A model generated the notes under the pieces. That model searched no databases, was not told the DNA's origin, and saw nothing but the letters and a program-made list of their open reading frames with translations. DNA of 64,000 bases from Flaccisagitta enflata (Eukaryota): NCBI GenBank assembly GCA_965153355.1, contig OZ231126.1:35030001-35094000 (forward strand), written 5' to 3'. Below are positions 2,710-53,080 of this stretch, piece after piece. Position 1 is the first letter of the stretch. Each line of letters starts with the position of its first letter. The position numbers and the translations under genes were made by a program.

Positions 2710-2973
2710 CGGCTAGCTCTCTGTCACACTAGTTGAAATTTGAAATCAAAACAAACATTCAAAAACATAAAAAACATTCAAAAACATAACAAACATTCAA
2801 AAACATAACAAACATTCAAAAACATAACAAACATTCGAAAACAAAACAAACATTCGAAAACTAAACCAACATAAAAAAACATTAGCCTTTAAAAACACAT
2901 AAATCACGTAACTAAATATTAACATTAGATGATAAAACACGGTTTCAATGTCAAAATTTAAACATTTGATGTC

Positions 2974-3057
<84 letters not shown>

Positions 3058-3405: not shown

Positions 3406-3898
3406 TTTTTGGGCAGCGGCCCCAAAGGGCCGATGTCCTGTAGGACACAGGGGTGAATTTCCATAGGTCCGTACGTCTGTCCGTCCATCCATCTCCCCCC
3501 CAAGCTTCTCAAGCCTCAAATTCCCATTGAATAACATGGGAAATGGACAAAACACAAACTTCCCATTGAATAACATGGGAAATGGACAAAATACAAACTT
3601 CCTATTGAATAACATGGAAAACTGATGAAAAACTAAGAAAAATGTAAAATTCCCATTGAATAATATAGCGAGTTGACAAGATATTGAAAAAAATGCAAAA
3701 TTCCCTTTGAATATCATGGAAAATTGCTACCAGGGCCTCATGTATGCCCTCTCAGGACATATGGAAATTCACCCCTGTGTCCTACAGGACATCGGCCCTT
3801 TGGGGCCGCTGCCCTGCCTTCACTCCGATTCTTCAGCTAATCACTCCAAGCAGGGCATCGGGTACCGCTGACCATGTGCGATCTTTGGATGACTTGTT
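3406..3898 (+). mobile_element. HINE-like family B
   Basis: TTTTTGGGCAGCGGCCCCAAAGGGCCGATGTCCTGTAGGACACAGGGG, an inverted copy of this near the 3' end, a (GTCC)n tract, and a 3' tail GGTACCGCTGACC...GACTTGTT. Confidence 0.7.
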
Positions 3899-4217
3899 AG
3901 CCCATATGCAGGCTAACACTTCAAAAGTAACTTGACTTTGAAACGAGGCCGGATACACGGCTACCCTAGTCGCGTACGGATGGGTAGGTGCAGTGATGGA
4001 GAAGATCTCTGGAGTAGTTGGGCTGGAGCAGTGAGCTCAAAACGCTCAAAATGCTCAAAAACGCCAAAAAGTAAAATGGGGACCGACCAACGTATGGATG
4101 GATGGACAGACAAAGCGGGGTGTAGAGTCGCATAGCACGCGACTAAAAATATACAAAAAAAAAAAAAATTCACTACAACAACAACAACAACAAAAACAAA
4201 AACAAAAACAAAAACAA

Positions 4218-4274
<57 letters not shown>

Positions 4275-5277
4275 CGTTACTACCAGGAAACATTGAACGA
4301 GCCTGTGAGCGGAGTGAGCGGTGCGAGCAAACGAACGTAGTGAGCGACCGATTGGCCCGTTTAAAATGCAGTTGTCATGTGTCCGTCAGTGGTTCAAATC
4401 TACCACAGATGGATATGCCACAGATAAATAGTAAAGAGAGAAAAAAAATAAGAGTCATGAAATTTTTAACTGGTGTGATCTATGCAAGACTTGATTAAGA
4501 ATAAAACAAAAAAAATCGATCTGCCTCAATGACGCCCATTTTCAATTCATCTTTCCGGCCTAAAATATTTGAAAATGTCTAGATTTCTTTGTTAATTTTC
4601 TTTCTTTGTAAATTTTCTTTCTTTGTAAATTTTCTTTCTTTGTAAATTTTCTTTCTTTGTTAACGTTCTTTTTTTTTCTTTTTGTAAATTTTTCAAAATA
4701 GTTATCAAAATACGAAAAATTGCTACGAATTTGTTGGGAAAAAAATCGAAAAACATTTTTCAATTTTTTGAGTTTCGCTTAGGAATTAATTTTTTCCATT
4801 TTCGCTTGGGGCGTTTTAGAAAAGTTGAGTCACAACTAGGCTCGCCCGGGGCTGGGGTTGAAATTGGTACAGGGTGAAAGAGGGCACTTTTTTACACCCT
4901 CTGGAAAAAAGCAGGGCACTGTCGGACCAATACTTTAGGCGCTATGAATTCTTTAATCTTTTTTTATTTTTTCACATTTTCCGCATTTTCCTCAAATATC
5001 AATATTTTTCATCGATCTCTATTTTGGGCCTTTATGTAACAATAAAAAATTCAGTAGAGAGCATCAGTAGATGGTGGGAGCATAGGGAGGGAGATGGAGT
5101 GGGAGGAAGAAGAGGGAGGGAGAGGGAGGGAGAAGGAGGGAGAGGGAAGAAGGGAGTGGGAGAGAGGGAGGAGGGAGGGAGAGGGGGGACAGGGAGAGGG
5201 AGGGGGAGGGTGGGAGAGAAGGAGGATAGGGGAGGGAGGGTGAGGGAGGAGGAGAGGAGGGAGGGAGGAAGAGGAAG

Positions 5278-20752: not shown

Positions 20753-20932
20753 TAGTGAAAGTCGAAGATTTGGCTTCGGCATCGACCTACTGACCGGGAC
20801 ACTACCCTAACTGCGGAACCGAAGTCGAAGTTGTTATCCAACTTCGGTTTGCAGGAGTCAGGAGTCAGTATGAAGTAGGTAGAAGGTTCAAAGTTGGATT
20901 CTTTTAAAGGAGAAAAAAAGAAAAAAGAGAGA

Positions 20933-21012
<80 letters not shown>

Positions 21013-21744
21013 GACAGAGAGAGAGAGAGAAACAGTGAGAGAGTGACAGATGGGGAGAGATAAAGTTAGATGTTTTAATTCAAAGAATGTAAGAGTATGT
21101 TAGGAAATGTAAGAAAATATAAGACAAAGAGAGAAAGAAAGAAAGAAAGAGACAGACAGACAGACAGACAGACAGATAGACAAATAGAGAGAGAAGGAGA
21201 AAGAGAGAGGGAGAGAAAGAAAGAAACAAAAGGAGGGATAAATAAAGAAACAGAGAAAAGAGGGAGAAAAAAAACATGAAAATAAAAATACAAATGATTG
21301 AAAAAAAATCATTTAAAGAAATATCAGAACCACTAGTTTTGCTTCAGAGATTAACTTAAACTTTAAAAACAAAGCACATATTTGTATTGATATGTTTAAA
21401 TAAATGAAATTTCACTTATTGGTATCATACTATTTCTCACATTCAAAAGCAAAAAGAAATGATAAATCAATAAAAGATTTTAAGTTATTTTTTTTTAAAA
21501 AGAGAAATAAAAGTGAAAAATAAAGCAAGATAAAAAAAAAAAAAAAAAACAAGATAAAAAATAAAATCAAAATTTGATATTTATCTTTATAATATAAAAA
21601 AAATTTGATTCAATCAAAAAATTGAAGTAACTTTGAACTTCGGTTTTGGACTTCGGCAACCTTTGGATTCGGTTTCGGAAACAAAGTCACTGTAATCTTT
21701 GGCTTCGGTTCGACTTTGGTCTACCTACCTTTGGTCTAACACTA
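20753..21744. mobile_element. hAT-like non-autonomous element containing (GA)n
   Basis: TAGTG...CACTA ends; 8-bp TSD ATTTGAAT/ATATGAAT (1 mismatch); subterminal CTTCGG/CCGAAG repeats. Confidence 0.6.
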
Positions 21745-21870
21745 ATATGAATATATGCTTATACTTGAGTAACTTCAGCAAAAAAGAAGGTTTCTGAACA
21801 AAAAAAAAAATTTATGCAAGCTCAAAAATGGCTAAAATGCAAATTTTGCTGATTTTGCTCTGACAAAGTA

Positions 21871-22472
21871 CAGTGGGGTTCGTGGAATAACAGCCTAAAC
21901 TGGAGGAAGCTATTTAAGTGTCTTAATTTCATTTGACAAACTTGATATTTAAAATATAAGTTGTTTAATCGATGCTTTTGTCCCTGAGTTTTTTGGTTGC
22001 TATGGAAACCAAAATTATTTTTTCAAACATTTATAAACACTAAAATATCAATATTTTGAGAAATATTGTCAGGGAACATTGCTCAAAATTAAATTTGCTA
22101 CAACTTTCCCACAGTATGATCTGTAAGAATATTGCTTGTTTGGCCGTTGCTAGGGGGCATCACACCTAGCAACCGCCAAATGATGCTCCCTAGCAATGGC
22201 TAAACGAGCAATATTCTTACAGGACATACTGTGGGAAAGTTGTAGCAAATCTAATTCTGAGCAATGTTCCCTGATTATATTCATCAAAATATTGATATTC
22301 TAGTTGTTATAAATGTTTGAAAAAAAAATTTTTGTTTCCTCAGCAACCAAAAAACTCAGGGCCAAAAGCATCAAGTGAACAACTTATATTTCAAATATCA
22401 GGTTTGTCAAATGAAATTAAGACACTTAAATACCTTCCTCCACTTTAGGCTGTTATTCCACGAACCCCACTG
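21871..22472. mobile_element. Palindromic Tc1/mariner-like MITE
   Basis: TA|CAGTGGGGTTCGTGGAATAACAGCC ... GGCTGTTATTCCACGAACCCCACTG|TA; arms ~280 bp. Confidence 0.9.
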
Positions 22473-23124: not shown

Positions 23125-23952
23125 TGTCACAAAGCATGGTCTTGCACCAATTTTGTCTATTCTTATGGATTATTTGGTTTGTATTTAGGCCTTAGATTTT
23201 GATTTATTGATTGATATTTTTGGTTATATTTAGATATTTTACTTAGATTTGATCGTTTTATTTAGACTGGTTTTATCGTTTGCAGTTATTACAGGTTTGA
23301 ATTATTCTGATTTCATTTATTGACATTGCTTAAATTTATTGATTGATTTATTGCCTCGTTTATTCGTTTATTTCATGCATTTATTGATTTGTCCGTCTGA
23401 TTTGTCCTTATTTCTGTCCAAATTGTTTATGTTTATCCATATGATCTTTTCTTCCCTTGCATTTCGTTTCTGTCATGAATCTCCTGCGTTTTTTGTTATT
23501 TGGGCTATTTTAGACCAAATTTGTAGTGCCCTCAATTGACCATTATTTGCATTTTTTACTGGCTGACGCAATCGAGTGTCGAAGGGAAATTGAAGATTCC
23601 TTGATATTCTATCGCCTTCTAGAACTTTTCGTTGCTTAGATACCGCCATTTTGCCGGCAATATTTCCTACAGACTCTAGAAAGACGCTTCGAATTGCTAA
23701 AAACTACGTTTCCGTATATTAAATAGACAATTTTTACCATTATTCGTACCGATACGAGCATCATTAGGACGCTTTTCGACTTCCCTGAGCACCAAACAAA
23801 GCTTTAACTAACTTCGCCTACGTTCAAATAAAAGAAGATTTCGTTAAGATCGCACCGTATTTGTTCGGGGTTTGAGTTTCAGTCAACAGCGGCGCAGCCG
23901 CATACAGGAAAGCTAGCGGCATTGGGCATTTAGTTTAGTACACCAGAATACA
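23125..23952 (+). repeat. 5' LTR (828 bp)
   Basis: TGTCACAAAGCATGG...CACCAGAATACA, repeated at 30972. Confidence 0.9.
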
Positions 23953-26733: not shown

Positions 26734-27362
26734 CACCGTGTTGCCTAGCTGTGATAGGTAGGAAAAAATGACTCAGCATAGTGACCTATTCTAGGTTGTT
26801 GCTTACATGTAGGTGCATCTCACCATACATGGAACTAAAAATTCTGTTGGGATTTTTTTGAAAAATATACAAAAAACACATTTTTTTATACAATTTGTGC
26901 CATAAATCTCTGTGATCAATTTTTAGATAATTTTCGAGTTCAGAATTGAATTTAGATGATGTTTTCTGTTTCGTTTGATATGTCACACTATATTCTTTCA
27001 AAGAAAGAAGGAAAGTTCATTTTTTGAATATAATACTACAATAATAAATATCATTTTAAGTATTTTATAGACAAAATGAACTCTTTATTCTTCTTTAAAA
27101 GTATATAGTGTGACATATCAAACGAAACAGAAAACATCATCTGAATTCAGTTCTGAACTCGAAAATTATCTAAAATTTGATCACAAAGATTTATGGCACA
27201 AATTGTAAAAAAAAATGTGTTTTTTATATATTTTTCAAAAAAATCCCAACAGAATTTTTAATTTCATGTATGGTGAGATGCACCTACATGTAAGCAACAA
27301 CCCAGAATAGGTCACTATGCTGAGTCATTTTTTCCTACCTACCACAGCTAGGGAGCACGGTG
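26734..27362. mobile_element. Foldback MITE, Chapaev/CMC-like
   Basis: CACCGTG...CACGGTG termini, ~290-bp inverted arms and a 4-bp TSD AGGC. CAC/GTG ends with a 4-bp TSD are Chapaev hallmarks. Confidence 0.85.
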
Positions 27363-27775
27363 AGGCTTTTCTGTGGCAATTGCGATCCTACTACTGCTCA
27401 AAACTCAGTCCGGCCTAAAACTCATGTATATTGGCCAACGCTGCCCACCTATTATGACCCCATATTCAGATTACCCACTCCCTCTCGGGGTTCACCACAA
27501 AGTCAAAATGTCAATCAACATTCAAGACAGATTGACTCAGACTCACCAACCCTTTTGCGCGCAGCTGGAGTGAGTCACACACCGTCATACATCCAACCCA
27601 CTTCGTTTCATCCTACTCCGGTTAAGGTGCAGATAAGCCATGAATTATTTGTGCCATCAAAATTAGGGATGGCTGTGTTGGCTCAGTCAAACAATCAGGG
27701 TCAGTCTGAAGACTCTCCTACCGTCATTGGCCTTGAAAATGACATCAAGGAGGCAATAGAAATTTCCACAGAAAA

Positions 27776-28557
27776 TGAAGCCGAGGCCAACTCAGAGGCC
27801 CAGGCCAACTCAGAAGCCAAGGCCAACTCAGAAGCCAAGGCCAACTCAGAAGCCAAGGCCAACTCAGAAGCCAAGGCCAACTCAGAAGCCGAGGCCAACT
27901 CAGAAGCCGAGGCCAACTCAGAAGCCGAGGCCAACTCAGAAGCCGAGGCCAACTCAGAAGCCGAGGCCAACTCAGAAGCCGAGGCCAACTCAGAAGCCGA
28001 GGCCAACTCAGAAGCCGAGGCCAACTCAGAAGCCGAGGCCAATTCAGAAGCCGAGGCCAACTCAGAAGCCGAGGCCAACTCAGAGGCCGAGGCCAACTCA
28101 GAAGCCGAGGCCAACTCAGAAGCCGAGGCCAACTCAGAGGCCGAGGCCAACTCAGAAGCCGAGGCCAACTCAGAAGCCGAGGCCAACTCAGAAGCCGAGG
28201 CCAACTCAGAAGCCGAGGCCAACTCAGAAGCCGAGGCCAACTCAGAAGCCAAGGCCAACTTAGAAGCCGAGGCCAACTCAGAAGCCAAGGCCAACTCAGA
28301 AGCCGAGGCCAACTCAGAAGCTGAGGCCAACTCAGAAGCTGAGGCCAACTCAGAAGCCGAGGCCAACTCAGAAGCCAAGGCCAACTCAGAAGCTAAGGCC
28401 AACTCAGAAGCCGAGGCCAACTCAGAAGCCGAGGCCAATTCAGAAGCCGAGGCCAACTCAGAAGCCAAGGCCAACTCAGGAGCCAAGGCCAACTCAGAAG
28501 CCAAGGCCAACTCAGAAGCCGAGGCCAACTCAGAAGCCGAGGCCAACTCAGAAGCCA
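27776..28557 (+). repeat. 18-bp minisatellite (GAAGCCGAGGCCAACTCA), ~43 copies
   Basis: Near-perfect tandem array; open in frame as EAEANS/EAKANS. Confidence 0.97.
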
Positions 28558-30971
28558 TTTAGTCCATTTTTAAGCGAACTTCAGTCTTAGTATCAGACTC
28601 ACTTGTGCATTCACATTTAGAAATGAGGACAATTTGTAAATATTGTGCATTATTTTCATTTCTCTTTGAAATCAATGCTCTTATTTTTTGAAACATGATC
28701 TTTGCGTGACTCTACAAGCGGGTCAAATTCCCTAACAACAAATATGATATTTGCGTGACTCTACAAGCGGATCACGCTTCCTTACAACAAACTTAGTCAC
28801 TCAGACGACCAAGTTTACTGTTGTGCAACCGTGTGCAAACCCATTGCTAGTTTCATTTTAAAGGCCCACAATGCCTGCAAGAAAAACGAAATAAGTGATA
28901 GGAGTCCATCATTTGAAAATTAATCCACTCATGTCTCTAGAAGCTACACTATACAGCATGGTTAACCGGAAAATCAAACATATGGTTTTGCTCGCTAATG
29001 TGAACAATTCAATTCTACTTGCTTAATTCTAGATGTAGGTTATGCTTGTAGAGCTTCAGAATTTTGAACCTTGGGATCCCAAAAAACTTCAGACCTAACC
29101 TCAGAACCTCAGAACCTCTCCCACTCAGTTAAGTATGGTATGAAATCCTGAAGCCGCAGAGGCGAGTTGGAAACAACGTTGGATACTGTGCCCTAATGTT
29201 TAGAAGGGAAACATTGTAACATCCTCTCCCACATACCTTAAGTATGGTATGAAATCCTGAAGCCGCAGAGGCGAGTCGGACGCGACGCTGGACACTGAGC
29301 CTTTGAGCTCAGAAGGGAACAACAGAAGCAAAACAGAACCAAAACTTTGTAAGTGAAAATAAGTGGCAGTGCACTAGCTCCTCTGTAATTTGGGCGAGTT
29401 CCACTAGTTTTCACTCTCGAGGTATCTTCATTGTAAATATCATCATTCAGTTATCTTCACCTTTATTGATTTTGAGAATTTAATCATTTACCATCCCCAA
29501 CATAGACAATGAAATGATAAGATGAATTTATCTGGTAATTTTAGATTCAAATGACACGTCATAAAATGTCTAAAAGAGACAAGAAAAAACAAACGAATCA
29601 GAACATATGAAAGAACAAAAAGAACAAGAAAATACAAACGAATCAGAACAAAGAAAACGAACCCAAGTCAGAACAGAAAGAAACAGAACGAGACAAAACA
29701 GAAGAAAACATTGAAGAACCAGACTTGCTAGAAATCAAAATAAAAGAAGAAGAATGTGAAACATTAGATTTAGAAGAAGAGTTAGGGATTGACAGGGACC
29801 TTTCCTCTCAACCCGTACAGAACAAATCGTCACGGTTCCCGAGGAAGGAGAACGTTACGGCATGTGGTACGACGGAGTCTACCACAAACTCTATCGCCAA
29901 ACCTGGATTGACCAACACAAAGCGGCATTTTGGGACAGCTACATAAATGACAGTTGATTGCTCAACCACCTCTGAATCATTGCACTGATTGATGTTTTCG
30001 CGAGACAGAAATTGGTGACAGTGGCGAGGAGGGTGATTTGGCGCTAGTAAAGCTGATGACATGTGTGGACGGAAGTCGCAAGCCTGAAACTCATCTTCTA
30101 TGTGATATTGGCTTCCAAGTCTTCAAGCATCAACAAATTTGAACATTTAGTAACTTTTGTCAGTGACATCATCACCGAGAATTAAGCCAATGGTGAGCGG
30201 CAGTCTCATCTCGCTTTGAAGTTGGAGGAGTCCCGCGAACCAGATGGTAACAACACTAACAACGAGACAACATTAACAACAAGCGACAACTTCAACAGTA
30301 ACATCAACAAAGACAACGAGGGCGAAGAAGGACAACAACAATCTAACAACAACGATGGCGGGAAGACTAGGACAATAATTCATCGACGTCAAAGAACAAT
30401 TCTCGGCGGAATCGACTCCTCAATCCACTTTCTTTCGACAAACGGACAATTTCAGCGGATCGATCCAATCTGCATTCATTCGGCAAACGGACTCTCTAGC
30501 GGGTTAAAACAATCCGCGTTCCATCGAATTTGAGCAATTTCATCGCTATTAGACTCTTCATTCGAAGTGCTTACTGCAAACTAACTCTTTTAGACTACTC
30601 TTGACTAACGATCTAGCGCTTTCGGTCATCTATCATCGACAATTTGAAACTTGCAGTTCCGGCAAGATTCGAAAGATACAGATTCTCCCACCCCCCCACC
30701 CGCGCATACCAGAAACTAACTTAACACCTGAGACAACTAGCATAGAAACTTTATGTAGCATGCGCACATTTTAATTGAATTTAATTATACGAGGCAGAGC
30801 ACAAGCGCTCTTAGAAGACGACGAAAGCATTCATTTTCATGATTTCACTACAGTGTGTTATACTTCAAATGTTACTCAAAAAATTGGACAAGACCAGGCT
30901 TCAAGACTAGTTTAGTTTTTTCCTCAAATTGGTATATTTGGTATATGATTTTGACTCAAAAACGGGGGGAG

Positions 30972-31578
30972 TGTCACGAAGCATGGTCTTGCACCAATTT
31001 TGTCTATTCTTATGGATTATTTGGTTTGTATTTAGGCCTTAGATTTTGATTTATTGATTGATATTTTCGGTTATATTTAGATATTTTACTTAGATTTGAT
31101 CGTTTTATTTAGACTGGTTTTTATCGTTTGCATTTATTACAGGTTTGAATTATTCTGATTTCATTTATTGAAATCGCTTAAATTTATTGATTGATTTATT
31201 GCCTCGATTATTCATTAATTTCATGCATTTATTGATTTGTCCGTCTGATTTGTCCTTATTTCTGTCCAAATTGTTTATGTTTATCCGTATGATCTTTTCT
31301 TCCCTTGCATTTCGTTTCTGTCATGAATCTCCTGCGTTTTTTGTTATTTGAGATATTTTAAACCGAATTCGTAGCGCCCTCAATTGACCATTATTTGCAT
31401 TTTTTACTGGCTGACGCAATCGAGCTTCGAAGGGGAATTGAAGATTCCTTGATATTCTATCGCCTTCTAGGACTTTTCGTTGCTTAGATACCGCCATTTT
31501 GCCGGCAATAATTCCTACGGACTCTAGAAAGACGCTTCAAATTGCTAAAAACTATGTTTCTGTATACACCAGAATACA
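30972..31578 (+). repeat. 3' LTR (607 bp, internally deleted)
   Basis: TGTCACGAAGCATGG...CACCAGAATACA, followed by TSD GGTAT. Confidence 0.9.
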
Positions 31579-38600: not shown

Positions 38601-38997
38601 CTAAAAATGTTCTTTTTCAAATGCAGGTTTTTAAGAAAAAAAGAGCATGGGCCTTCAGAAATTTGGCAAACTTCCGTAAAAATCGCAGACAGAGAAAAAG
38701 AGCTGATGATATTTTTGGCGCTACATTAATTCCTACTTGAATGTGTATGTCTACCTGCCTGTCTGTTGATACATCTGTCTATCAATCAAGCTCAAAAGCT
38801 AGTAAGATAGATAGATAAATGTATGAATACACTGATACATACCTAATTAGCGCCACTCCCCTAATTAGTATCCCCTTTTTTAGTCGCGGACACGCAACTT
38901 TACACCTTGCCGTGTCGGTCGGTCCGTCCGTCGGTCTGTCGGTCACATTTCTAAATTGCGATCGGTTTTCGCATTACTGCTCCTGCCAAACCGTCCG

Positions 38998-39546
38998 TAT
39001 CAAAGAGATACTGCGCCCGAGCCGCTCGGCGGTGAGAGGACGATAGCGATAATGACCGATCTCCAAAACAACTCCGTACATCGGATCATTATCGTCATTC
39101 ACCCTCTTACCGTACGAACAACAAATCAAGATACTCTCAATTCATTTAATAATCGTTCCAAAGGCATCTCCAACTTCGCTACAGATTCTCAGGTTAATAG
39201 ATCGCACTGACTGACATTATAGAAGGACAGAGGGAGGAGGAGGAGACGGAGGGAGGAGGAGAGGTAGGAGGAGAGGGGAGAGGGAGGAGGAGAGGTAGGA
39301 GGAGAGGGAAGAGGGAGGAGGAGAGGGAAGAGAAGGCGCGGGACGAAGACAGGACGAAGAAGAAGGACGAACGCGGGGTTAGGGCAGGGGCAGGGGGAAG
39401 TAGGGCTCGGGTCAATCATGATTCGCTCTATTCATTTCTCGTATTTCCTTTGTTCAGATTACAAGTACAGATATCCAGTATATCGGCCTGTTTCTCTAGA
39501 TCATAGCGCAGGAGCTCTGTCGACGAACGCCACCATCTCAGTGATA
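38998..39546 (+). repeat. 5' LTR (TATCAAAGAGAT...ATCTCAGTGATA)
   Basis: Direct repeat of 50628-51176, with 12-bp imperfect terminal inverted repeats. Confidence 0.95.
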
Positions 39547-42500
39547 GTAATCTGAGAATCTTCGTACGAATGCGCTAATAATATTTCCTTTCCAGAAATC
39601 GCGATACGTCTAATAATTTTTTTTTCAGAAAGCAGACTCTTCGACGCGTGAAATTACAAATATCCGGACACACAAACAGACAATCTTCTCACAGATCAAA
39701 CATTAACCTTTCTTCCTACAGGAGCAAGTACTAACGATCTTTGCCTCCCTTTAGCGTGACCTTCCTTGCGCCTAGCGCTGTCGGTCAAACAAACAAGGCC
39801 GCCCTCTTGCTCTCCTTGCGCCTAGCGCTGTCAGCAAAGGCAAAGCCAAACAACAAGTCCGCCCCACTGCTCTCCTTGCGTCTAACGCTGTCAGCAGAGG
39901 CGAAGTCTCTCCTAGCTCTCCTTGCGTCTAACGCTGAGGCGGAGAGAATAACACAGTTGAGAATTTCTATTTATACAAAATTAAAGATCAGAGACAATTT
40001 CAATTCAGAAACTTATAACAGTCTGTTTAACATAAACAAAAATTAAATTCAGAAAAACGAGCACACTCGTAACAGACTTAAACTCCGCGTATCGATCATA
40101 CGGTTTCCGCGCATATCTTCCCAAATCACGTGACATTTCGTACCCCGTTATAACTAACCTACGACACTATCGTACGAGATAACCTCGACTTCCGACTTCG
40201 CGACCGCGCTCTTCGTCATCGTTAAAAATACTCGTACCCCGGTTCAGTTAACTGACGACTTTCGGTCACCGACAAACTTTATCGGTCAAAGTCCATACGA
40301 ATCGCCGCCTCCGCTCGGGAACCAATATTCTGTCAACCGATTTCGTTCGCATTTCCTTTTCCTGTTCTCTACTACTCCGGCTCTCCCCCTCCTCTTCTCC
40401 GCACACCCGATCCCAAATTATCACCGAGCTATCGTAAAACCCCGTTCGTGCTCGTGCCGTTTTGCACCGCCGACGCCGATCCGCGGAAATTACATTGCTT
40501 TCATGAACAAATAAAACAAAAACTTTACTATTGCCAAATATAATTTCAATATTTGTTGCTTATTCTGTAGAAAAACGCGCAGATAGGGACAAACTCGTCT
40601 TTAGCTAGTCCATCAAATTAGCGCGTTCATTACAAACAACCTTTGTTGCCATACGGACATAGTAGTCTCGTGATTGTCGTTGCTAAGCGCACAGAGTAGT
40701 TCCGTTATTACCGTTGCCAAAGGGCACAAATTATAAACGTCATATTTGTAGCCAGTTGGGCCGTAGAAAACGCGACGCCCGGTGGGCAGTTTCTGGTCAG
40801 ATTGCGTCATCGTACATAAACAAACAAACAAATTGCCGTCGGAAGCACTAATTAACCGGTAGAACGTCATAAGTTCTGTAGGCCATGAATCAGATTCGTT
40901 AAAGCGGACGAAGAGAACAAAGTAAACATTTAAAACACACAAAAGACAGTCATACAAGACATTTAACACTCTGACATCGTCTATCGTGCTCGTACCGCCG
41001 GCGCATTCAAATCCGCCGCCGTGAATTCATTGACTTTGCTCTACCTGGTAAACAATAAAAACATTGTTCATTGCAAATACAATTTAAATACTTGCCATTC
41101 ATTACAAAGAAGACACGCAGATAAGGGAAACAATCTCGTTCTAGCTATTTTGATAATTTTGCGTGTCCTCATTCTATTCCCAAACTGGTACCACTGTTGT
41201 TATTTACGTCATTGACTCTCTCTTTTAATTGCGACGCCCGGTTGGCAAAAAAGAGGTCACGTGACACCCGATTTACGTCCTAAGCATCGTATCACGTTGT
41301 TAACGCCGTCCGCTGGGCGTCAAGTGCACCTTTCATTTTTATAAGAACCTAGTTTATAAGAACATCAAACCTCGGAATCGCTCAAAAATTCTGAACATAG
41401 TAATTTTACTAGTAGTTGTCTCTATCTATTTGAAGGCTTCAGAAAAAGAAAATGACGTTCATATAAAAAAAATAAAAAATGTAAATGAAGTTGGTCTCAT
41501 TATTTGTAAAAACGACCCGATCCTCATATTACGCGTAAAGATCACCAACAAGAATTGTACAGTATTTTAAATAATCACACGTTTGGTCAATTCTGTAAGT
41601 CATCGCATAAACGCCAATCTGCTGCACTATCTTTTTACAAACTGAGGCAAAGAACTGAGTCACGACTTTTTTCTCCCACGCTCCTAAATCCGTCAGATCT
41701 CACGAAACCGCTGTTCAACAGACAAAACAAAGCAACGTCTTCAGTAGAGTTGTGTAAAGACTTCACACAACAGAACGGAACAAAACAAAACCCTAACAAG
41801 ACAAAACAAAACAAGTACCAAAACAAAAACGAAACAAAACAAACATAGATTAAACAAAACACAGTAACAGTGAGACAAACAAACAATCAAACAACAACAA
41901 AAAAAAAAAAAAAAAAAAAAAAAATAAAAATAAAAAGCAAAACGGAACAAAACAAGACAAAACAAATTAAAACAAACCGAAACAAACAACAAACAAGAAT
42001 GACAAAACGAAACAAGACAACGAAAAACAAATACTATTTGTAAGACTCGAAACGCCTTTAAGCAGTGCTTAAGAATAAAACAAAACGAAACAAAACAAAC
42101 AAGACGTAACAAATACTAATCAAAATTAAACAAAATAAAACTAAGTGACCTAACAAAACAAGAAAACAAAACAACAAAATAAATAACAAAACCAAGACAG
42201 GTAACCCAAAACAAACGGCAAGGAACCAATCTAAACAGACATGATATGACAAAACACTAAATCCAAGCAAACAAGATAAAACTTACGAATATAATCAACA
42301 AAACAAAACAAGACAAAACAAAACAAAACGCAAAACAAAACGAAACAGAAAATAACAAACAAAACGAACGGTTGAAAACAAACGGAAACAAAACAACGAA
42401 ACAAAACAGATCAATACAAAACAAAACCCAAATAAAACAACACAGTAAGGTAAACAAGACAAGACAACAAGTAAAACGAGTTTAAACTCAACAAAACAAA

Positions 42501-43171
42501 ATATCAATAAACTGACAAAACAAGAAACGGACTAGAGAAACGGAACACAACAAACAAAAAAAAAACAAAAAAAAAAAAAAAAAAAAAAAAAAAACAAAAA
42601 AAAAAAAGGAAACAAAAAACAAGAACGGAACACAAATACAACTATAAATAAGACAAACAAAATTTAAACAGACCTTCGAAAAAAAAAAAAAAAAAAAAAC
42701 AAAAACAAAAACAAAAACAAAACGAAACAAAGAACACAAGAAAAACAAAACAAATAAACCGACAATCCTTTAATTGACATTAACTCATCTATCCAACTTA
42801 TAAATCAACATCAGTTTCCTGCTTACATCAACTATTACGCGTTTCTCTCTCTCCCCGCAAATCTGAATCATCGTCGCTGTACAACAGACAACGTCATCAA
42901 TTTCTAGTGGCATCTAGTGTTAGCTCAAACTCTCTATGTCCATCCGTCATCAAACCAATTCCGACAAACATCAACGTCATCTGTCAAACACCATCTAGCG
43001 GAGAAACACAAATGAAACAAAACCACAACTACAAAGTTCTCACGGAGTAGCATGTACAACAGGCGAAGTTAGGGCTAATAAAACCCAACTATTCTATCAA
43101 CAGTACCCCAAATTGCATTTATTTGCTCATTCATCCCCGAATCATACTTGTCACCTTCCAAAACCGCTATC

Positions 43172-45943
43172 ATGCCGAAAAACAAGGAAACAAGCCCTAA
43201 AAACATGCGGCGTCTCTCAAGGGACCTCTTCAGCGACGCAGAAATTTACCAAGAAGTTGCACAAAGAGCCTATGAGTCACAGACCGAAAGCGACAAAGAC
43301 GATGCCACTTGGAGACGCAGCATGTTGGTCAAGTTGACAGAAGAGGCTGTGTGCTGCATTGAGGCAGCAGGAAAGAAAGGTCGCAAATGCCCAGAACTAA
43401 AAGAAGCTCTCAAGCATGCCCAAACATCCCTCAAGGGCCCACATTCAGACTCCACTACTGCGACTTCCGTTGACAGAGATAACGTCGATGCCGCGATGCC
43501 GCAAGACGACACAGAATCTCTGGTCACGAGATCTTACTGTTCAGGTAGCTCGAACAATCAGAACGAATCATCGCTTGACTCAGATGAAGACGCTAACCCA
43601 CATCATGACTCAACGCCCCCTTTGATTTGTTCACCACCAACCAATGAATGCTCAACCAACCAACTCAAACCCAAACCAACCAGGTCAGATCGAGGACAGA
43701 CAGCTGGAGGGTCTGAGTTCATTGACAAACGCCTACCAACCAAAGATCATGTCAACTTTAGACCAGAGCTGCCCACCTCCTCTCACCAACCAACTCAGCA
43801 ATCAGGAGAACAAACAACCCAACTACCCACCCAACCCAGCCAAAAGTCTCAAAACCAACCATCAGAGAAATTAGCCACCCGGTCAACCACCCAGTCAACG
43901 ACAGGAAGCACAAAAAGACCACCCAGCCAGTCAACCTCCAAATCAGCTATCAAAACCGCTCAACCCATTAAGAAGTCAACCACCCAATTGACCACCCAAC
44001 CACCCATCAAAACCAAGCAAAAGCCACCCATTGACAAGCAACCTAAATCAGCTCCCATCCACAAGAACCCACCAAGCTCTTTCATATCCGGCCACAGATC
44101 AACCACCCGAAATGAACCAAATCCACCCCCATCCCATAGCAAGGTAAACTCAGCCATCACCAAGTCGTGTTACACAGAGCCATCAACACACTCAACCAGA
44201 GCCAACAAGTCGTGCTACACTACACCATCTACACACTCGACCAGGATAACTGAGTCTCAATATGCAGCAACATCTACACACTCAACACGGTTGAGCAAGA
44301 ACACAAATAGATCAACGGCCGTCTCAACAAAACACTCATCAAAGAGATTCACAAAGCCATTATCTAACATCTCTGACGCATCAAATGCCGCATCAGAACT
44401 GAGACAGAATCGTGAAGAGGCAGAAAGAGAAAGAGAAGAGATCCGAAGCCAGCAGGAAGAATTAGAGAGAATAATGAGAGAAGAATCTCAACAACACGAA
44501 CAAGCCGCAAGAGAGGAAGCAGAAAGGATAGCTATACAAGCAAGAGAAACGGCAGAAAGAATTGCTAGGGAGACTAACGAAAATCTACAGGAAGCAATCA
44601 GAATTAGCGCAAGACAAGCAAGAGAAAAAGTAAGAGATGTTAACCGTAGAGAACAAGAAAAACACAGTGACATTCTAGACAGAATGTCAAACTCATCAGG
44701 CGGGTCAAGAACATTCTACACGACCAAGACAAGAGAGGACAGCGGAACAGAGGTGTACGGTGTGGCAGCAAGCAATAGACTTATAGCACCAAGCAACAGA
44801 ACGGAGGATGAGTCTCCAAACAGACATCGGTCAGTCAGTGAGGTCAGTGGCTGCACCGTTAGGGCATCAACTTACCACACTGTCGCTCAAACTGCAACAA
44901 GCACGAGAAACGGGCAAGAAAGTCACCAACAAAAAACCAACAGACGCCCAGAAGAGACTCGGAAACAGAGAGACGCACACAGTCAAGCTCAGTCTCAACC
45001 AAACAAAGAACGCAGTCAGACCACCATACCAGCGACATCAAACCAACCATCAAACCATTCCATCGTCACAGGGGTACGTGAAACCCCTCAGGCAGTAGAA
45101 ATTCGCGCTGTTGCTGAGGAAACAACTCGAGCAACACTTGCAGCAGCAGGGATCAACAAAACCCCTAATGGGCGTTCAAGTCTCGAGGCGTTGAAAATTG
45201 CTGAAAGAAGAAGACCATCAATTGCATTTGATGGTATCAACAAGTCCATTGATTTCGACGAACACATGAAGAATTTCCTCAGCGCCGTTGACATGCCTGA
45301 TCTCTCCACCAAAGACAGGCTGAAAGAGTTTCAACACTGGTTCAAATCGCTGGCATTAGCCCGGATCAACTGTTACATGCGACGCACCGACACAGACGCA
45401 GCATTTGAGGAAGCAGTGGAGCGTCTCAAGGCTGAATACGGAAACCGGAAGCAATCGGCTGAAGACATGCTGCAAAGCACACTTGAGGGACATGTCATCA
45501 AGAAACACCAATTTGAAGAAATGAGCGAGTTCATTTTCAAGGTGGAAGGGACATACACCCTGGCGTGCGAAACGAACAAAGAAGGAGACTTTGACAGAGA
45601 GTCAGTTTACAAGCGAATCCTAAACAAGAAGCTTCCTCATCTTAAGGAAAAGTGGTCAAAGTACGCTTGCAGACTGCCAGATGACTACCCAACGTTTCGA
45701 CAATTTCCAGACTTTCTTCTCCTAAACATACGCGCCTCAACACTCCTCCATGAATACAACGACGATCAAGGCGCCGAAGAAAAACAAAAGGCATCTGACG
45801 TCGCAGTCATCAACTCGACGATGGCGCCACAGACAATGTGGCAACTGCCCGTACCGTATGACCCCTCAATACCACCCCCACTGCCTCCCCAGTTCTACTG
45901 TACAACACCACCCCCCTGCTTACCAACAGCATATAACCAATAA
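43172..45943 (+). CDS. BEL/Pao-type Gag-like protein (~923 aa from the first ATG)
   Basis: Uninterrupted ORF with an S/T/P/Q-rich region and an E/R coiled coil. These are followed by FDG...F.....NF..AVD..DLS.KDRL..F..WF...A...I......D..FEEA.ERLK.EYG and ILNKKLP...KW...PTF.QF..FL, resembling the DUF1759/BEL-Pao capsid region. No CCHC knuckles or pol motifs seen. Confidence 0.75.
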   Translation: MPKNKETSPKNMRRLSRDLFSDAEIYQEVAQRAYESQTESDKDDATWRRSMLVKLTEEAVCCIEAAGKKGRKCPELKEALKHAQTSLKGPHSDSTTATSVDRDNVDAAMPQDDTESLVTRSYCSGSSNNQNESSLDSDEDANPHHDSTPPLICSPPTNECSTNQLKPKPTRSDRGQTAGGSEFIDKRLPTKDHVNFRPELPTSSHQPTQQSGEQTTQLPTQPSQKSQNQPSEKLATRSTTQSTTGSTKRPPSQSTSKSAIKTAQPIKKSTTQLTTQPPIKTKQKPPIDKQPKSAPIHKNPPSSFISGHRSTTRNEPNPPPSHSKVNSAITKSCYTEPSTHSTRANKSCYTTPSTHSTRITESQYAATSTHSTRLSKNTNRSTAVSTKHSSKRFTKPLSNISDASNAASELRQNREEAEREREEIRSQQEELERIMREESQQHEQAAREEAERIAIQARETAERIARETNENLQEAIRISARQAREKVRDVNRREQEKHSDILDRMSNSSGGSRTFYTTKTREDSGTEVYGVAASNRLIAPSNRTEDESPNRHRSVSEVSGCTVRASTYHTVAQTATSTRNGQESHQQKTNRRPEETRKQRDAHSQAQSQPNKERSQTTIPATSNQPSNHSIVTGVRETPQAVEIRAVAEETTRATLAAAGINKTPNGRSSLEALKIAERRRPSIAFDGINKSIDFDEHMKNFLSAVDMPDLSTKDRLKEFQHWFKSLALARINCYMRRTDTDAAFEEAVERLKAEYGNRKQSAEDMLQSTLEGHVIKKHQFEEMSEFIFKVEGTYTLACETNKEGDFDRESVYKRILNKKLPHLKEKWSKYACRLPDDYPTFRQFPDFLLLNIRASTLLHEYNDDQGAEEKQKASDVAVINSTMAPQTMWQLPVPYDPSIPPPLPPQFYCTTPPPCLPTAYNQ

Positions 45944-48900
45944 CGATAACCGCGCCTCCAGCATAATCAGCATTCATCGCAATCACACATGCTAGAGAGA
46001 CATTTTTCAAACAATAACTGAGACTATCATAACCTAACGTCATTGATCAAATTCAAAGATAAATGTTTGAACAATTTAACACTGATTGCACCAAATTGTG
46101 GACGGCGGGGGCAAATTACCTCTGTCATCTGGTGTCATTTCATTTGTCATACACATGCTAACTCTTACAATTTGTCATCTTGCATTTGTCATTCCTTTTT
46201 TGCCACTTGTCATTTCCTGCTCAGATCGGCCAAATTCAGGCTTTAAAAATTGAATATAATCATCAAGACAGATGTGACCATTGTAGTAAATAAAAGAATA
46301 AATGAACATCCTAAATGAATGTGAGAGTGAATGTGACATGCCATCGAGAGAATGTGAGGGATAGTTCATAACAAAATTTCACTTTGACCTCTTTGACGCG
46401 TAAAGAGAGTAATACAGTCATTTGTTTATGTTTCCTACTATGAACAACGGTCACAAATGTATGTCAATAGTCTTTACTAAATTAAACGAATTCTTGAATA
46501 TTTGTAAGGGATCAGTGAATCAAAAGAAATAATAACAAATGAATTTAAGATGTTTTTCTCAGTTTGTGTTGATCTGGTGCAGGAAATTCTTGTCACATCA
46601 TCATTTTGTCACATAACCATTTTGTCACATCAACACATTGTCACATTGTCACACTGTTTGTAACAAAATTCATCGACTATTTGCAATTAACCATTGTCTC
46701 TCCATCTTTATCGTACTGAAACATACAAAATTTTTAGTCTAACCATTGTAACCCGCTTGACGGCGGGGGCGCTGGTTTGACTCAAACCCTATGTAAGACA
46801 ACGAACTCATAACTAAATGAACAACGAACTCATAACTAAATGTCCATCATCCATGTTCACTGTCAAAAAACAAATGCTCAATATTACGCGTCAATTTCCA
46901 TTGAATGTAAGAACGTTACTATGTTATCCTTTCCAACATGCTGGACGGCGGGGGCGCTGTTGGACTAAAATCCTAAGTCAAAAACTTGCTTTAAACCCCC
47001 GCATAACTAACATCCTTCATAGATGTTTCCTGTTAAAAAACAAATGCTCAACAATACGCTTCAATCTTCATAATGTTCTTATCCTGTCCAACATTCTCGA
47101 CGGCGGGAGCGTTAACCCTTTTGTCCATCGACAGACTGCATAGAAAGACATCAACAAGCTGTCATTTCATCACTATCAAACGTCTACAAACTTGACATTT
47201 CACCAACAATAGTGATGGTTCAATGTTGGTCATTACGCCAACATTCGTTTGGCAAACAACTACACCACTGTTGCATAACCATGTACACCACTGTTCTTAC
47301 GGCGGGGGCAAGCAAGCGTCCATGCTGAAACATTTCACTATCTAGATAAACAAAAGACAATAATACGCAAGACACCCAACAAATTCTCACATTTCTTACG
47401 GCGGGGGCAATGTTGCACCCAAAATTCAGTCTTTCCTCATCATTCATATAAGCTGTGTAGTAAAATACACTCCACCGTTCAGATTCTCACCTCTTGCACG
47501 GTGGGGGCAATAGAAACTGCATGAAACATATAACCCTACAACGTTACTGCCTTTCCTCCATCGCCTCAAATCTAAGAAACAGTTAACATTCATATAATTC
47601 AAGCACCCGCAGCAAATTTAAAGACAATAACGTTACTTAATCAAATTTAGTCATGGCTCACGTTGTCAATACAACAACATTTGGAAACAATTTGTTGACA
47701 TTGATCAACACAACAAAACTAAATCAAGTTTGTTCATCGCTGTATTAAATCAACTCAATAACAAAAAAAAAAAAAAAAACAAAAACAAAAAAAAAAAAAA
47801 ACCAAATAAAAACAAAAAATACAAAACCAAACAAAAAATAAAAGCTCAAAACAACAAACGACAAAGAAACAAAGAATCTCAACAAGCAAGATGATTCAAG
47901 TGAATACATCAAGCAGCGATCCGTACAAAAAAACAAGCGTACGCAGACCCAAAGGGTAATGACAAAACAATCTAACAGACAGGAAAAATAAAAATGCAAA
48001 TTTATGACGCTCAGACCCGTGAACTAGACGAACACAAAAAGACCAACTTGATTTAACAGGTTGTCAACAATCATCAATCTAAATAGATTTCAATGTATTA
48101 TTCAAATGAAATATTAGATATTCAGCAATATTAATTCTAAAGGTTCGGCAATGTCATTTGTTTAATGTTAGAACATTAAGACACTCAACATAGTAAAAAC
48201 AATAGAAAACTAACAATACAAATTTCTAGCGTAAAACATTAAAATAAACAGTATTGAACAAACAATCTGAATAAACAATCGTAAATAAAGAATGTTGATA
48301 AACAATCAAGGTTAAACAATCAAGGATTATTACATATTGTATAGAAGAGTGTGTTTCTTAAATCGCTTACAGAGTAGCTAAGATTTGACTCCAAAAGCTT
48401 AAGATTTTTTTTGTCGTTTGATAAAACATAAAAAGAAATTTACAAAAAGAAGAACCAGCATGCTTCAGCTATTTGGCACTTCATCAAGAAAACCACTACA
48501 ATGTCGCTTAGGAGTTTGAAAAGGTATTTCTCTCGTGAACTCAGAGGGTCAGGAGACAACTTTGACTGAAGCGAATTTTTCATAAAATTGCCCTCATGGA
48601 ATCAACACCCCTGCGATCGCGGTCAACTTGCATATTATAGTGGCCCATGATCATATGAGTTAAGAGAGGTGAAAATAATTGTGGTATCATTGTCTTTTAA
48701 AGCGCCAAACTAATTTTTATCGCTGGCGTTTGGTTGAGTTACTTTAGAAAATTTAAGTATCTTTTATTATGCTAATAATTCACTTTTCTTTTACTTAAAA
48801 TAAAAAAAAAAGGTTTTTGAAAATTCCGACCCAATTTTACCCTGATGAGGACCTGTACATTTCAGCCAAATTTCCTACCAAAACAGTTTCCTTCATGTTT

Positions 48901-49886
48901 AAAAGGACTATGACAAGCATTACTGAGGTTCTTGTACATAACAAACTTGCTGAATAAACAGTTAACGAACACTATTGCTCCGCCCGGAACATATCAGATG
49001 AAAAAAGGGAAGATTTAAAATGTCTAGCAATGTTGATGTTAAAGTGAAACAATGTCAAGGTTAAGGTTAGATTGAAACAATGTTAAAGTCAAACAATGTT
49101 AATGTTGAAGGTCAAACAATGTGAGGCTTAATGTTTGAACATCAAAACCAACAATAACAAATAAAATCCTTAACAAAGGTAAAATAAACTAGGCAAATAT
49201 TAAACAATACCTAATAACATTGTTTAACGTTGTTTATTGTTGTTTAATGTTAAGACATGTATATGAACAGTAAAAAAAAATTGTTAAATAACAATGCTAG
49301 AACATTAAAACCGTTTAAAACGTTAAATATACAGAAAAAATGGTAGATAAACAATATCAAAATGTTTAGAGATGAAAATGTCTAATGTTAATACATTAAA
49401 ATACATAATGTTAAGAAAGCGACTTTGATTAAGAAATATCAAATAAACAGTGTTAAACACTGTTAACATTTAATGTTAAAACAAAAATAAACATTCTTAA
49501 AAATGTTGAAAAACCAGATTAAAATGATATTAAGATAAAATCAACATCAAATAAATAAAGTTGAATAAATAATGATAAACAAAAATAAACAATGTTCAAT
49601 AAACAATTTTGAAACAATAAGATAATGTTTAAAAACAATGTCAAAGCATTAATATTTAACAAACAAGGTAAAAGCATCAAGAAAAAACAATGTCCAATAA
49701 ACATTGTTTAAGCATCAACATATAAAATGAAATAAGATTAAAAAAAAACTAAACAAATAATATTTACAAAGCCTAATATTTAATATTAAGCAAATAAACA
49801 ATGTGAATTAAAAAACAATTTTAATGGAACAAAATTAATTAAAGAATGTCAAAACAGTAAAAAAAAAAAAAGTTTAAATAAATCAG

Positions 49887-49938
<52 letters not shown>

Positions 49939-50613
49939 TTTTTGAATAAACGATGTTAAAACGTTAGAAATGCAACGTTGAAATAAACAAGGTCAAATAG
50001 ATAATGCTAAAATACAATGTTAAAACATTGATAGCATACTGTCAAATAAACAGGATATACAAGGTTAAAATAAGAACATGTAAAAATACCTTCTAAACCC
50101 CAAACTAAAGTAAAACATGAAATCTCAAAACAGTTAAACCAAAATAATAAACATGTGACAATCCCGATATTCACTTGAAATAGTATTCGATTTAATAAAT
50201 AGGTTATAAAATCAAAAAAAAAAAAAAACCCTTATAGCAATACATATACAATAAAAAGATCATACAAAATAAGAAACAATAAAACAAAATGAAAATAACG
50301 AAATAACACTCTCTAGAATACGATTGAATCTCTATTATCACAGAAAAGAAAACGGGCACAGAAGACTCACTGTATAAATACTAACACTAACAATCAAACT
50401 TGAGATGAAAACCATACTGAACTACAATAACAAATAAAAAGACGGAAATACAGAGACAACTTTATTTACCCGAAAGTTAACAAACGTCAGTCAGCCAACA
50501 AACGAACAAACACACGAGGAGCACAAAATGACATCACAGGAACACGATTCAGAGAGGGCGCATACGGACTCGGTCACAGTATCTCCCACGGTATCCCTTC
50601 GTCTTTCCTCCTC

Positions 50614-50627
50614 AGGATAGGCGGGGG
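50614..50627 (+). other. Polypurine tract of the 38998-51176 element
   Basis: AGGATAGGCGGGGG immediately 5' of the 3' LTR. Confidence 0.8.
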
Positions 50628-51176
50628 TATCAAAGAGATACTGCGCCCGAGCCGCTCGGCGGTGAGAGGACGATAGCGATAATGACCGATCTCCAAAACA
50701 ACTCCGTACATCGGATCATTATCGTCATTCACCCTCTTACCGTACGAACAGCAAATCAAGATACTCTCAATTCATTTAATAATCGTTCCAAAGGCATCTC
50801 CAACTTCGCTACAGATTCTCAGGTTAATAGATCGCACTGACTGACATTATAGAAGGACAGAGGGAGGAGGAGGAGAAGGAGGGAGGAGGAGAGGTAGGAG
50901 GAGAGGGGAGAGGGAGGAGGAGAGGTAGGAGGAGAGGGAAGAGGGAGGAGGAGAGGGAAGAGAAGGCGCGGGACGAAGACAGGACGAAGAAGAAGGACGA
51001 ACGCGGGGTTAGGGCAGGGGCAGGGGGAAGTAGGGCTCGGGTCAATCATGATTCGCTCTATTCATTTCTCGTATTTCCTTTGTTCAGATTACAAGTACAG
51101 ATATCCAGTATATCGGCCTGTTTCTCTAGATCATAGCGCAGGAGCTCTGTCGACGAACGCCACCATCTCATTGATA
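50628..51176 (+). repeat. 3' LTR (TATCAAAGAGAT...ATCTCATTGATA)
   Basis: Direct repeat of 38998-39546, preceded by the PPT and followed by the TSD. Confidence 0.95.
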
Positions 51177-53080
51177 GTCCGCGACTGGATTGCCGTGTAT
51201 TCGGCCTTGTTTTAAAAGCAAAATCCTTCACTAGCAGAGAATCTTTTTTATTTATAAACATTCTTTTTAAAAATAAAAAAAGAAACTAAAACATTGAAGT
51301 TTGGAGAAAGTTTGTGCAATTTTTAATCTTTTTCCCTTCACTTACTTCCTCATTTTTCAATTTCTTCTGAAAAAATTTTGATCAATACTTTTTTAGAGGG
51401 CTAAAATGACAACTTCAAATTATGATTTTTAGTCGCGTACTACGCAACTCTACATCCCGCTTTCTTGGTCCGTTGGTCCATTTGTCTGTCGGTCCGTTCA
51501 TCCATCATACTTTATTTCTTTTGTGTTTTTGCGGTCTTTGGTCTCACTGCTCCTGCCCAAATGATGAAGTGACCTCAAAAATGGTCCCGCCCACCCACAC
51601 GTGACTGGGGTAGCCCTGTATCCTGCCTTGTTTAAGTGCCCAGGGCGTTAATAAGAAGAAATACAAAAGGAAGATATGCAGCCAGGCCAGTCGGAAGATT
51701 TTGGTAGTTAGTTCCTGCTGCTCGGAAGGAAAACAAAATCAGCGGGTCTGCTGATGTGTTTGCATAGAAAATGAAAAGACAAATATGAAAATCATAGCCA
51801 AAATCAATTTCAGTAGAACCTCACTAGATTGAGCGCACCCGCTTATAAGGCATGCTTGCCTAAAAGGCATAAGATCTGCTGTCCCATCAAAGATTTTGTA
51901 GTTATTTCTACGTTAGCAAAATGCAGCTTCATGATAAGGTATAATCTTGCTTAGTCCCTTGACATGCGCTTTATGGTGAAGCTCAACTGTACCACGTTTT
52001 TGGAAAAATTTTCACAGCAACAAAAAAGTTGCAAGCAAGAATTCATTAAAAACCCAACAAATTAAGCTAATATTGTGGGATTGGACTTATATCAAAGATA
52101 TTTCAAAGATTGGAAGAGAAAGAATGGAAACATGTCAAATCAACAAATCTGTCTCTTCTCCACCCCTTCCAATATGTTTCTCAACAAGGCCGGATACACG
52201 GCCAATAGCTGTTGCAGATGGGTGGGTAGGGGTGGATATGCGCGTTTTCCCACTTTTCAACTTGTGCTGACGGACCAACAGACGGAAGGACGGATGGACC
52301 AACGGACGGATGGATGGATGGACAAAGCCTCTTAAAGAGTTGCGTGTCCGCAACTAAAAAAGATGGGTTCCTGTTAAAGCATTTCCACTAAAACATGACA
52401 TCGTGCTTGAGTGGAATAGGAAACTAGTCAGCGGTACCTGATGCCCTGCTTAGATTAATTAGCTGCAGAAGTGGAGTGAGAGCAGGGCAGCAGCCCCAAA
52501 GGGCCGATGTTCTGTAGGACACAGGGGTGAATTTCCAGACATCCTGAGAAAGCACATTTGAGGCCTTTGGGGCTACCTTCCTTGTTATTCAGTGAGAACA
52601 TTGATTTTTTTTCTATTTCATTGTCAATTTTCTATGTTTTTCAATCAGAATTTTGCAGTTCTTTCAAAATCTTGTCAATTTTCCATGTTAATCAAAAGGG
52701 ATTTCCCATATTTTCAACTTCTAGTAAATTTTCTATGTTATTCAATGGGAATTTCATATTTTTTTAATTTCTTTATCAATTTTTCATGTTATTCAATGGG
52801 AATTTTGCATTTCTTCAATTTTTCATGTTATTCAATGGGAACATGAGGCTCAGAAGCTTTGGTGTGAGGGGGGGACGGATGGATGTACGGATGGACGTAC
52901 ATACAGACGGCATACGTCTGGAAATTCACCCCTGTATCCTACAGGACATCGGCCCTTTGGGGCCACTGCCCAAAAAGTAGTGCTCTTTGGAATTCGAGCT
53001 TTAATGGAATTGGGAATAACTGATTTTATCACAATAGAAAAGATTAGGTTCTCTGAAGAATTCCCCTTCTTTCCCCTTAC

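Follow-up and report, generated by a model that had tools for sequence, protein, structure and literature searches.

A candidate self-priming site in a gag-only BEL/Pao-related retrotransposon

Structure of the element

The window analyzed here is a stretch of 64,000 nt from Flaccisagitta enflata (contig OZ231126.1, positions 35,030,001 to 35,094,000 of the forward strand), and all coordinates below are positions within it. It contains a long terminal repeat (LTR) retrotransposon, a 12.2-kb unit at 38998-51176, whose 5' LTR is not followed by a primer-binding site (PBS) for the 3' end of a tRNA. One base behind this LTR lies a 14-nt site that complements part of the LTR itself, an arrangement that may represent self-priming of the Tf1 type in an element of the BEL/Pao lineage. 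The features of the element described below lie on the + strand; the target-site duplication (TSD) and a palindrome next to the candidate PBS have no strand assignment.

The 12.2-kb unit is one single insertion, because in three public runs, X2, X1 and X12, DNA contigs show the empty target site by joining position 38997 directly to the sequence 3' of 51181. The 5' LTR (38998-39546) and the 3' LTR (50628-51176) were defined by alignment and BLAST of both copies and are 549 bp long each. They are flanked by a 5-bp TSD, GTCCG, with its 5' copy at 38993-38997 and its 3' copy at 51177-51181. The LTRs begin with TATCA (38998-39002) and end with TGATA (39542-39546), as opposed to the near-universal TG...CA; both the TSD and the empty site define these boundaries. 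A polypurine tract (PPT), AGGATAGGCGGGGG (50614-50627), adjoins the 3' LTR. The two LTRs are 99.5% alike and differ at three positions (39121, 39247 and 39541), at all of which the 5' LTR deviates from the family majority in the DNA contigs. No further copies of the element were found in the 64-kb window beyond the two LTRs.

The LTRs, the short TSD and the PPT are structural features of BEL/Pao elements. The LTRs, the PBS region and the PPT have been kept while pol is absent, which fits a non-autonomous element that encodes gag only. The element is a recently inserted, non-autonomous (gag-only) member of a BEL/Pao clade.

A candidate primer-binding site complementary to the LTR

In the reverse transcription of LTR elements, the 3' end of the minus-strand primer sits where U5 ends. 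Because LTR identity ends at 39546, the primer of this element must pair from 39547-39549 onward. No PBS for a tRNA 3' end was found there: TGG first occurs at 40757, 1.2 kb past the end of the LTR, and the + strand is free of TGG over the 1,210 nt from 39547 to 40756. The TGG-type PBS for the 3' end of tRNA-Arg or tRNA-Gly that is expected of BEL/Pao elements is thus absent. As the sequence there starts with TAAT and the next TGG is so distant, the CCA end of a tRNA cannot prime at this position.

A single spacer base, G39547, separates the LTR end from the candidate PBS, TAATCTGAGAATCT (39548-39561), which starts one base after the LTR and is the complement of an LTR segment. This segment, the candidate self-primer AGATTCTCAGGTTA (39183-39196), lies at the presumed start of R. 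The two are reverse complements of each other over 14 nt with the exception of one G-U pair (G39193 with T39551), and they include a perfect 10-nt core in which 39183-39192 pairs with 39552-39561. The lack of a TGG-type PBS after the 5' LTR, and the 14-nt pairing with one G-U at 1 nt from the LTR end, had both been pointed out in the initial annotation, and the letters and coordinates of the pairing proved to be exact. The AT-rich motif that it had placed about 35 nt upstream of 39183 was also recovered. It corresponds to the TATA-like sequence TTTAATAAT (39145-39153), which a motif scan identified 30-38 nt upstream of 39183 as the only strong TATA-like motif in the upstream part of the LTR (U3). 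This putative promoter element includes AATAAT, a possible variant of the poly(A) signal. As a TATA-like box it would put the transcription start at ∼39175-39183; A39183 is preceded by a C, and such an arrangement is what one would expect if R began here. If transcription starts at ∼39175, the sequence TTCGCTAC (39175-39182) could extend the duplex by 3+4 bp with 39564-39570, including two bulges, and the pair probabilities of TTCGCTAC track those of the central duplex. Directly after the PBS lies a perfect 10-nt palindrome, TTCGTACGAA (39561-39570). Our guess is that this palindrome may be a dimerization or packaging signal.

The match between the LTR and the PBS was compared with chance expectation, counting ungapped helices with at most one G-U that start within 6 nt of the LTR end. 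A 14-nt helix was reached in 2/2000 dinucleotide shuffles of the LTR. An equally long helix to the upstream 549 nt was found at 39 of 3000 random positions in the window, which is repeat-rich. The pairing had an RNAduplex energy of -19.0 kcal/mol, a value that was equalled by 16/1000 shuffles of the LTR and by 0/1000 shuffles of the 18 nt that follow it. When the 64 kb were searched for complements of the PBS with at most 3 mismatches, the two LTR copies were the closest (2 mismatches each) and the other three matches had 3 mismatches. The match between the LTR and the PBS is therefore real, and moderately but not overwhelmingly above chance. In folds of RNAs ending at 39565-39610, the central duplex was present in both the minimum free energy structure and the centroid structure, with a mean pair probability of 0.84-0.98.

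The family to which the element belongs is abundant and young, as judged from its depth and from the 99.5% identity of the LTRs. In DNA contigs of organism A the word depth of the LTR was 5,600-35,500, and that of 39544-39597 was ∼19,000-22,000 and equal to the LTR. No variants at 5% or more were found in either paired segment in the three runs, nor in 98 nt surrounding the first of them. Because PBS and LTR have equal depth and variants stay below 5%, the junction between LTR and leader has been used in recent transposition. Past 39625 the depth drops ∼4-fold to 2,900-4,300, which suggests that the LTR and ∼70 nt of leader are common to several internal variants; the autonomous partner of the element may be found among these variants. 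One contig joins 39630 to 39703 and omits 72 nt. Metatranscriptome contigs span 39115-39608, although such contigs cannot show a transcription start and may derive from DNA. Marine metagenomes contain small shares of the stretch, from which no conclusion about habitat is drawn. A purine tract of ∼200 nt composed of GGAGGAG-type units (39225-39420) fills much of the presumed R/U5 region and attracts unrelated RNA reads.

Gag and lineage

The internal region contains an intact gag-like open reading frame (ORF) of 923 aa (43172-45943). Its C-terminal part holds a DUF1759-like capsid domain (approximately residues 725-860, counted in the stop-to-stop frame). A protein of 923 aa that is 98% identical to this gag is present in a public protein set. 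The DUF1759 match of the window gag was weak, with an E value of 0.017 for the whole frame and of 0.0011 for the domain alone, both under the curated cut-off of Pfam. A domain scan of the 33 other ORFs of at least 50 aa in the internal region returned no match to a protease, reverse transcriptase (RT), RNase H or integrase. The Pao peptidase (PF05380), RT, integrase and DUF5641 of a BEL/Pao pol are absent from the window copy and present only in relatives. As the window copy has no pol, it must depend on a partner for this function.

A full HMMER scan gave 239 gag relatives at E ≤1e-3. Among the aligned members of the gag family, DUF1759 was recognized at E ≤0.1 in 16 of 23 (best E value 2.7e-5) and PNMA in 4 of 23. 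No pol domain was found in any of the 44 long gag relatives that were scanned, which were taken from the 150 matches listed of the 239. Likewise, no fused gag-pol relatives of the window gag were found among proteins of 1669-4765 aa, which is weak evidence. The alignment of 23 gag sequences was too diverse for a locus search, and an alignment of 4 sequences led to three short metagenome loci. Only one of these, L002, has sequence upstream of gag.

The gag of L002, the nearest relative for which context is available, matches the window gag with a BLASTP E value of 1e-33 and 35% identity over 177 aa. In this locus an in-frame stop after gag is followed by an ORF with matches to aspartyl protease and RT, which is ended by the contig edge. 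The gag and pol of L002 are in the same frame with one stop codon between them (2847-2852), which suggests that pol may be expressed by stop-codon read-through in its BEL/Pao clade. Searches with the L002 pol fragment gave 213 longer homologues at E ≤1e-3. PF05380 was listed in all of the 30 best of these and PF18701 (DUF5641) in most, and a re-scan of three homologues upheld the domains, with PF05380 at E values of 1e-32 to 1e-38. Because the window gag matches L002, whose pol homologues carry the Pao peptidase and DUF5641, the lineage is assigned to BEL/Pao and not to the chromoviruses, by way of the relative L002 rather than of the true partner. The description of the element as BEL/Pao-related that preceded this work therefore holds. 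The alternative raised together with it, a partner with an RT of the chromovirus type of Gypsy, was also checked, and the pol linked through this relative, which stands in for the true partner, is of the Pao type. Chromovirus-type pol or gag, as in the Tf1/sushi clade of Ty3/gypsy, was not encountered, and the gag is DUF1759-like. Scans of viral contigs with a pol protein and with a string consisting of the PBS plus the palindrome returned no matches.

The palindrome TTCGTACGAA, together with the C that precedes it, recurs in the leader of the distantly related L002 (449-459), ∼100 nt before the start of gag. The rest of the two leaders could not be aligned. The region upstream of gag in L002 gave no BLAST match to the window LTR and leader, with which it has only this 11-mer in common. 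By a rough estimate, the chance that the two leaders share an 11-mer is a few percent.

Surrounding sequence and a second LTR-like pair

The element is inserted into a repeat (38950-39003 and 51177-51210) that has a word depth of ∼2.9 million in run X2. This repeat is ∼100 times commoner than the LTR family in the contigs of organism A, and contigs with an uninterrupted target are common. Low-complexity, A-rich stretches resembling AAACAAAAC are present at 41750-42770, in the 3.6-kb leader, and at 47745-47900, after gag. The whole window is dense in tandem arrays with periods of 8-80.

A second LTR-like pair is located at 23125-23718 and 30972-31566. Its copies are ∼594 bp long, 96-97% alike and start with TGTCAC. 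A PPT-like sequence, AAAAACGGGGGGAG, precedes the 3' copy; no matching TSD was seen and no TGG directly follows the 5' copy. A hairpin (TCGTA-CCGA-TACGA) lies ∼25 nt after the 5' copy and has TTCGTAC in common with the first element's palindrome. Between the two copies, an ORF (27324-28562) includes a tandem array of 18-nt units. A self-priming geometry was also considered for this pair and rejected: its best duplex had -9.5 kcal/mol and was equalled by 117/1000 LTR shuffles, which corresponds to chance.

Discussion

The case for self-priming is that the primer must sit at the LTR end, where there is no tRNA PBS and where the sequence complements the LTR. Tf1-like self-priming of minus-strand synthesis in this BEL/Pao element is a tentative proposal, drawn from the arrangement of the sequence. 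Transcription would begin at ∼39175-39183 within the 5' LTR, on the 3' side of the TATA-like box, and the 5' end of the RNA would fold back onto the site at 39548-39561 that adjoins the LTR. RNase H of the partner element's RT would then cut at the 3' edge of the duplex, either after 39196 or, if the 10-nt core is used, after 39192. The latter cut would yield a perfect 10-nt primer with a 5-nt spacer. The freed 3'-OH would prime the copying of U5 and R. Strand transfer would require a poly(A) site located clearly downstream of 39196. The transcription start, the duplex in vivo, the cleavage and the priming from the cut end are thus all predicted steps. It is conceivable, and no firmer than the mechanism itself, that a clade of BEL/Pao elements of marine animals gave up tRNA priming and uses the 5' end of its own RNA.

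Self-priming is reported as experimentally established for Tf1 and Tf2, in which the first 11 nt of the RNA anneal to the PBS and cleavage by RNase H falls between nt 11 and 12 (PMC7175516). It has been predicted for the Tf1/sushi group, and the Tf1-type ‘pretzel’ is described as three duplexes, of which the two further helices involve PBS-adjacent sequence and the LTR downstream of the self-primer (bioRxiv 10.1101/2022.12.06.519325). Predictions from sequence are also given for the TAR lineage of plant Ty1/copia elements (Houba, Osr-1) and for Tcn1 (Neumann et al., 2019, PMC6317226), which makes the restriction of self-priming to Tf1/sushi in the initial annotation too narrow. Its statement that BEL/Pao elements are tRNA-primed agrees with the profile of the International Committee on Taxonomy of Viruses, which names host tRNA-Arg or tRNA-Gly as the primer of Belpaoviridae (PMC8742986). 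The fungal copia-type GalEa elements are described as having no PBS, a Conserved Hairpin Site and no known model of priming (PMC5445492). In titles, abstracts and selected passages of the literature, no self-priming in BEL/Pao was found.

As in Tf1/Tf2 and Tf1/sushi elements, the window element has no tRNA PBS and the site adjoining its LTR complements an LTR segment at the expected start of the mRNA. The length of the duplex is similar too, with 11 nt in Tf1 and a perfect core of 10 nt, extended to 14, in the window element. It differs from Tf1/sushi in being BEL/Pao by its gag and by the pol of its relatives, in the G-U within the duplex and in the TA..TA termini of its LTRs; moreover, most of its family gives no evidence of the two accessory ‘pretzel’ duplexes. 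With the TAR lineage and Tcn1 it shares the kind of evidence described for them, a missing tRNA PBS and an LTR that complements the sequence at the PBS position. Those elements belong to another superfamily and to hosts of another kingdom, and they are described with many elements per lineage, whereas a single family is considered here. Set against the published account of BEL/Pao elements, the LTRs, the 5-bp TSD, the PPT, the DUF1759-like gag and relatives with a PF05380 and DUF5641 pol are canonical. The window copy departs from that account in having neither a tRNA-Arg/Gly PBS nor a pol, in its 3.6-kb leader and in its unusual LTR termini.

Several observations weigh against self-priming. 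The central duplex depends on the boundary chosen for the fold, as its probability was 0.24-0.29 for an RNA end at 39620 and at most 0.01 from 39640 on. In the longer RNAs it is displaced by pairing between the purine tract and downstream pyrimidines and by a competing hairpin across the junction of LTR and PBS (39536-39557; TCTCAG/CTGAGA with a 10-nt loop), which has a pair probability of ∼0.9 when the folded RNA extends into the leader past 39620. The closing pair of this hairpin uses G39541, a base private to the window copy. The same base is required by both candidate flank helices on the 5' side, which comprise 5-6 bp: CACTGA (39205-39210) with TCAGTG (39538-39543), and ATCGC (39201-39205) with GTGAT (39541-39545). 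Position 39541 is a T in the 3' LTR, in 6816 of a depth of 7241 in run X2 and in all of the depth in runs X1 and X12. Because G39541 departs from the family majority, the 5'-side flank helices are accidents of the window copy. The extension of the duplex by TCAGTG/CACTGA that had been suggested earlier thus depends on a private substitution. An extension on the other flank could come from the 3+4 bp of 39175-39182 with their two bulges. On the 3' side, the folds contained no helix with sequence located downstream of the primer. The three-duplex ‘pretzel’ of Tf1 is thus not evident, and only the central duplex is solid. In L002, whose LTR end is undefined, no helix of at least 12 nt was found between the leader and the 440 nt upstream, and the best helix had 11 nt with two G-U pairs.

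The variation within the family and the transcript data count on the same side. In the standard model of self-priming, the plus-strand strong stop copies the primer and the PBS drifts to a perfect match. With a 14-nt self-primer, therefore, about half of the new copies would be expected to carry C39551 under this model. Within the family, G39193-T39551 is a fixed wobble pair, and C at 39551 was not seen at 5% or more. Self-priming can be reconciled with this only by a primer ending at 39192 or by biased repair. As the paired segments do not vary at 5% or more, they offer no covariation, and their conservation is indistinguishable from the youth of the family. Approximately 6% (∼12 million reads) of the 30-Gb polyA RNA run X24 of organism A were scanned and matched 10 reads. 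All 10 were <95% alike, matched over part of the stretch and fell on the purine tract at 39220-39300. Of the self-priming originally put forward, the absence of a PBS, the LTR complement, the TATA-like geometry and the BEL/Pao lineage stand; the ‘pretzel’ is not evident, the wobble is fixed and the fold depends on the RNA boundary.

A somewhat unlikely alternative is that priming depends on a host RNA without a terminal CCA, such as the 5' half of a tRNA or a tRNA cleaved internally, whose 3' end would be the perfect complement of 39547/8-39561, and that the LTR complement is coincidental or a by-product. A perfect match of such an RNA to the PBS would explain the fixed T39551. PBSs for half-tRNAs are described in LTR elements (PMC6317226), and BEL/Pao elements are described as tRNA-primed (PMC8742986). 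The half-tRNA-primed elements of the copia type (Osser/Bianca, PMC6317226) have a PBS without a TGG start, as does the window element. According to that account, however, they have no complement of the PBS in their own LTR; the window element has one, and a tRNA matching its PBS is not known. A host-RNA primer would leave this 14-nt complement, which was reached by 2/2000 and 16/1000 shuffles in the two tests, unexplained. In addition, the PBS read in the sense of a tRNA forms no anticodon arm when stem pairing is inspected by hand around each possible U33. The 64-kb window contains no tRNA gene and no Rfam family, and hence no positive evidence for a primer of this kind.

Less probable still is that the paired segments are an inverted duplication or a leader structure, serving packaging, dimerization or control of translation, and have no role in priming. 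The similarity between 39175-39196 and the complement of 39548-39570 continues with insertions and deletions and resembles one duplicated block. The palindrome TTCGTACGAA, which also occurs in L002, suggests that the leader carries signals distinct from a primer site. The GalEa elements, moreover, are presented as PBS-less elements with conserved palindromes or hairpins and no known priming model (PMC5445492), and they share with the window element the absence of a PBS and a conserved palindrome near the LTR end. As described there, the GalEa palindrome spans the LTR end and has no LTR complement, whereas the palindrome in the window starts 15 nt past the LTR and a 14-nt complement exists. Against an inverted duplication or leader structure it can be held that something must prime at 39547-39549, where no alternative is visible, and that a site at the LTR end with one spacer base meets the needs of a PBS and not those of a packaging helix. 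A chance 14-nt complement in low-complexity, repeat-rich sequence is very unlikely: matches did arise at 39/3000 random positions and in 16/1000 LTR shuffles, but other long helices are expected (an unchecked expectation) mostly in tandem or inverted repeats, while the paired segments are not of low complexity and their match falls precisely on the primer position and close to the predicted promoter.

If a host RNA is the primer, the case is an ordinary one. Self-priming itself is already known, and it is plausible that BEL/Pao would be the third superfamily of LTR retrotransposons in which it occurs. If the Tf1-like self-priming proposed here is correct, tRNA-independent priming would not be bound to the RT/RNase H of chromoviruses, and a second, unrelated RT/RNase H would become available for studying the cleavage of RNA-RNA duplexes. 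Annotation pipelines that require a tRNA PBS would under-call such elements. Self-priming would have arisen in, or have been kept by, all three superfamilies of LTR retrotransposons, which would be relevant to the view that hairpin priming or self-priming is older than priming by tRNA.

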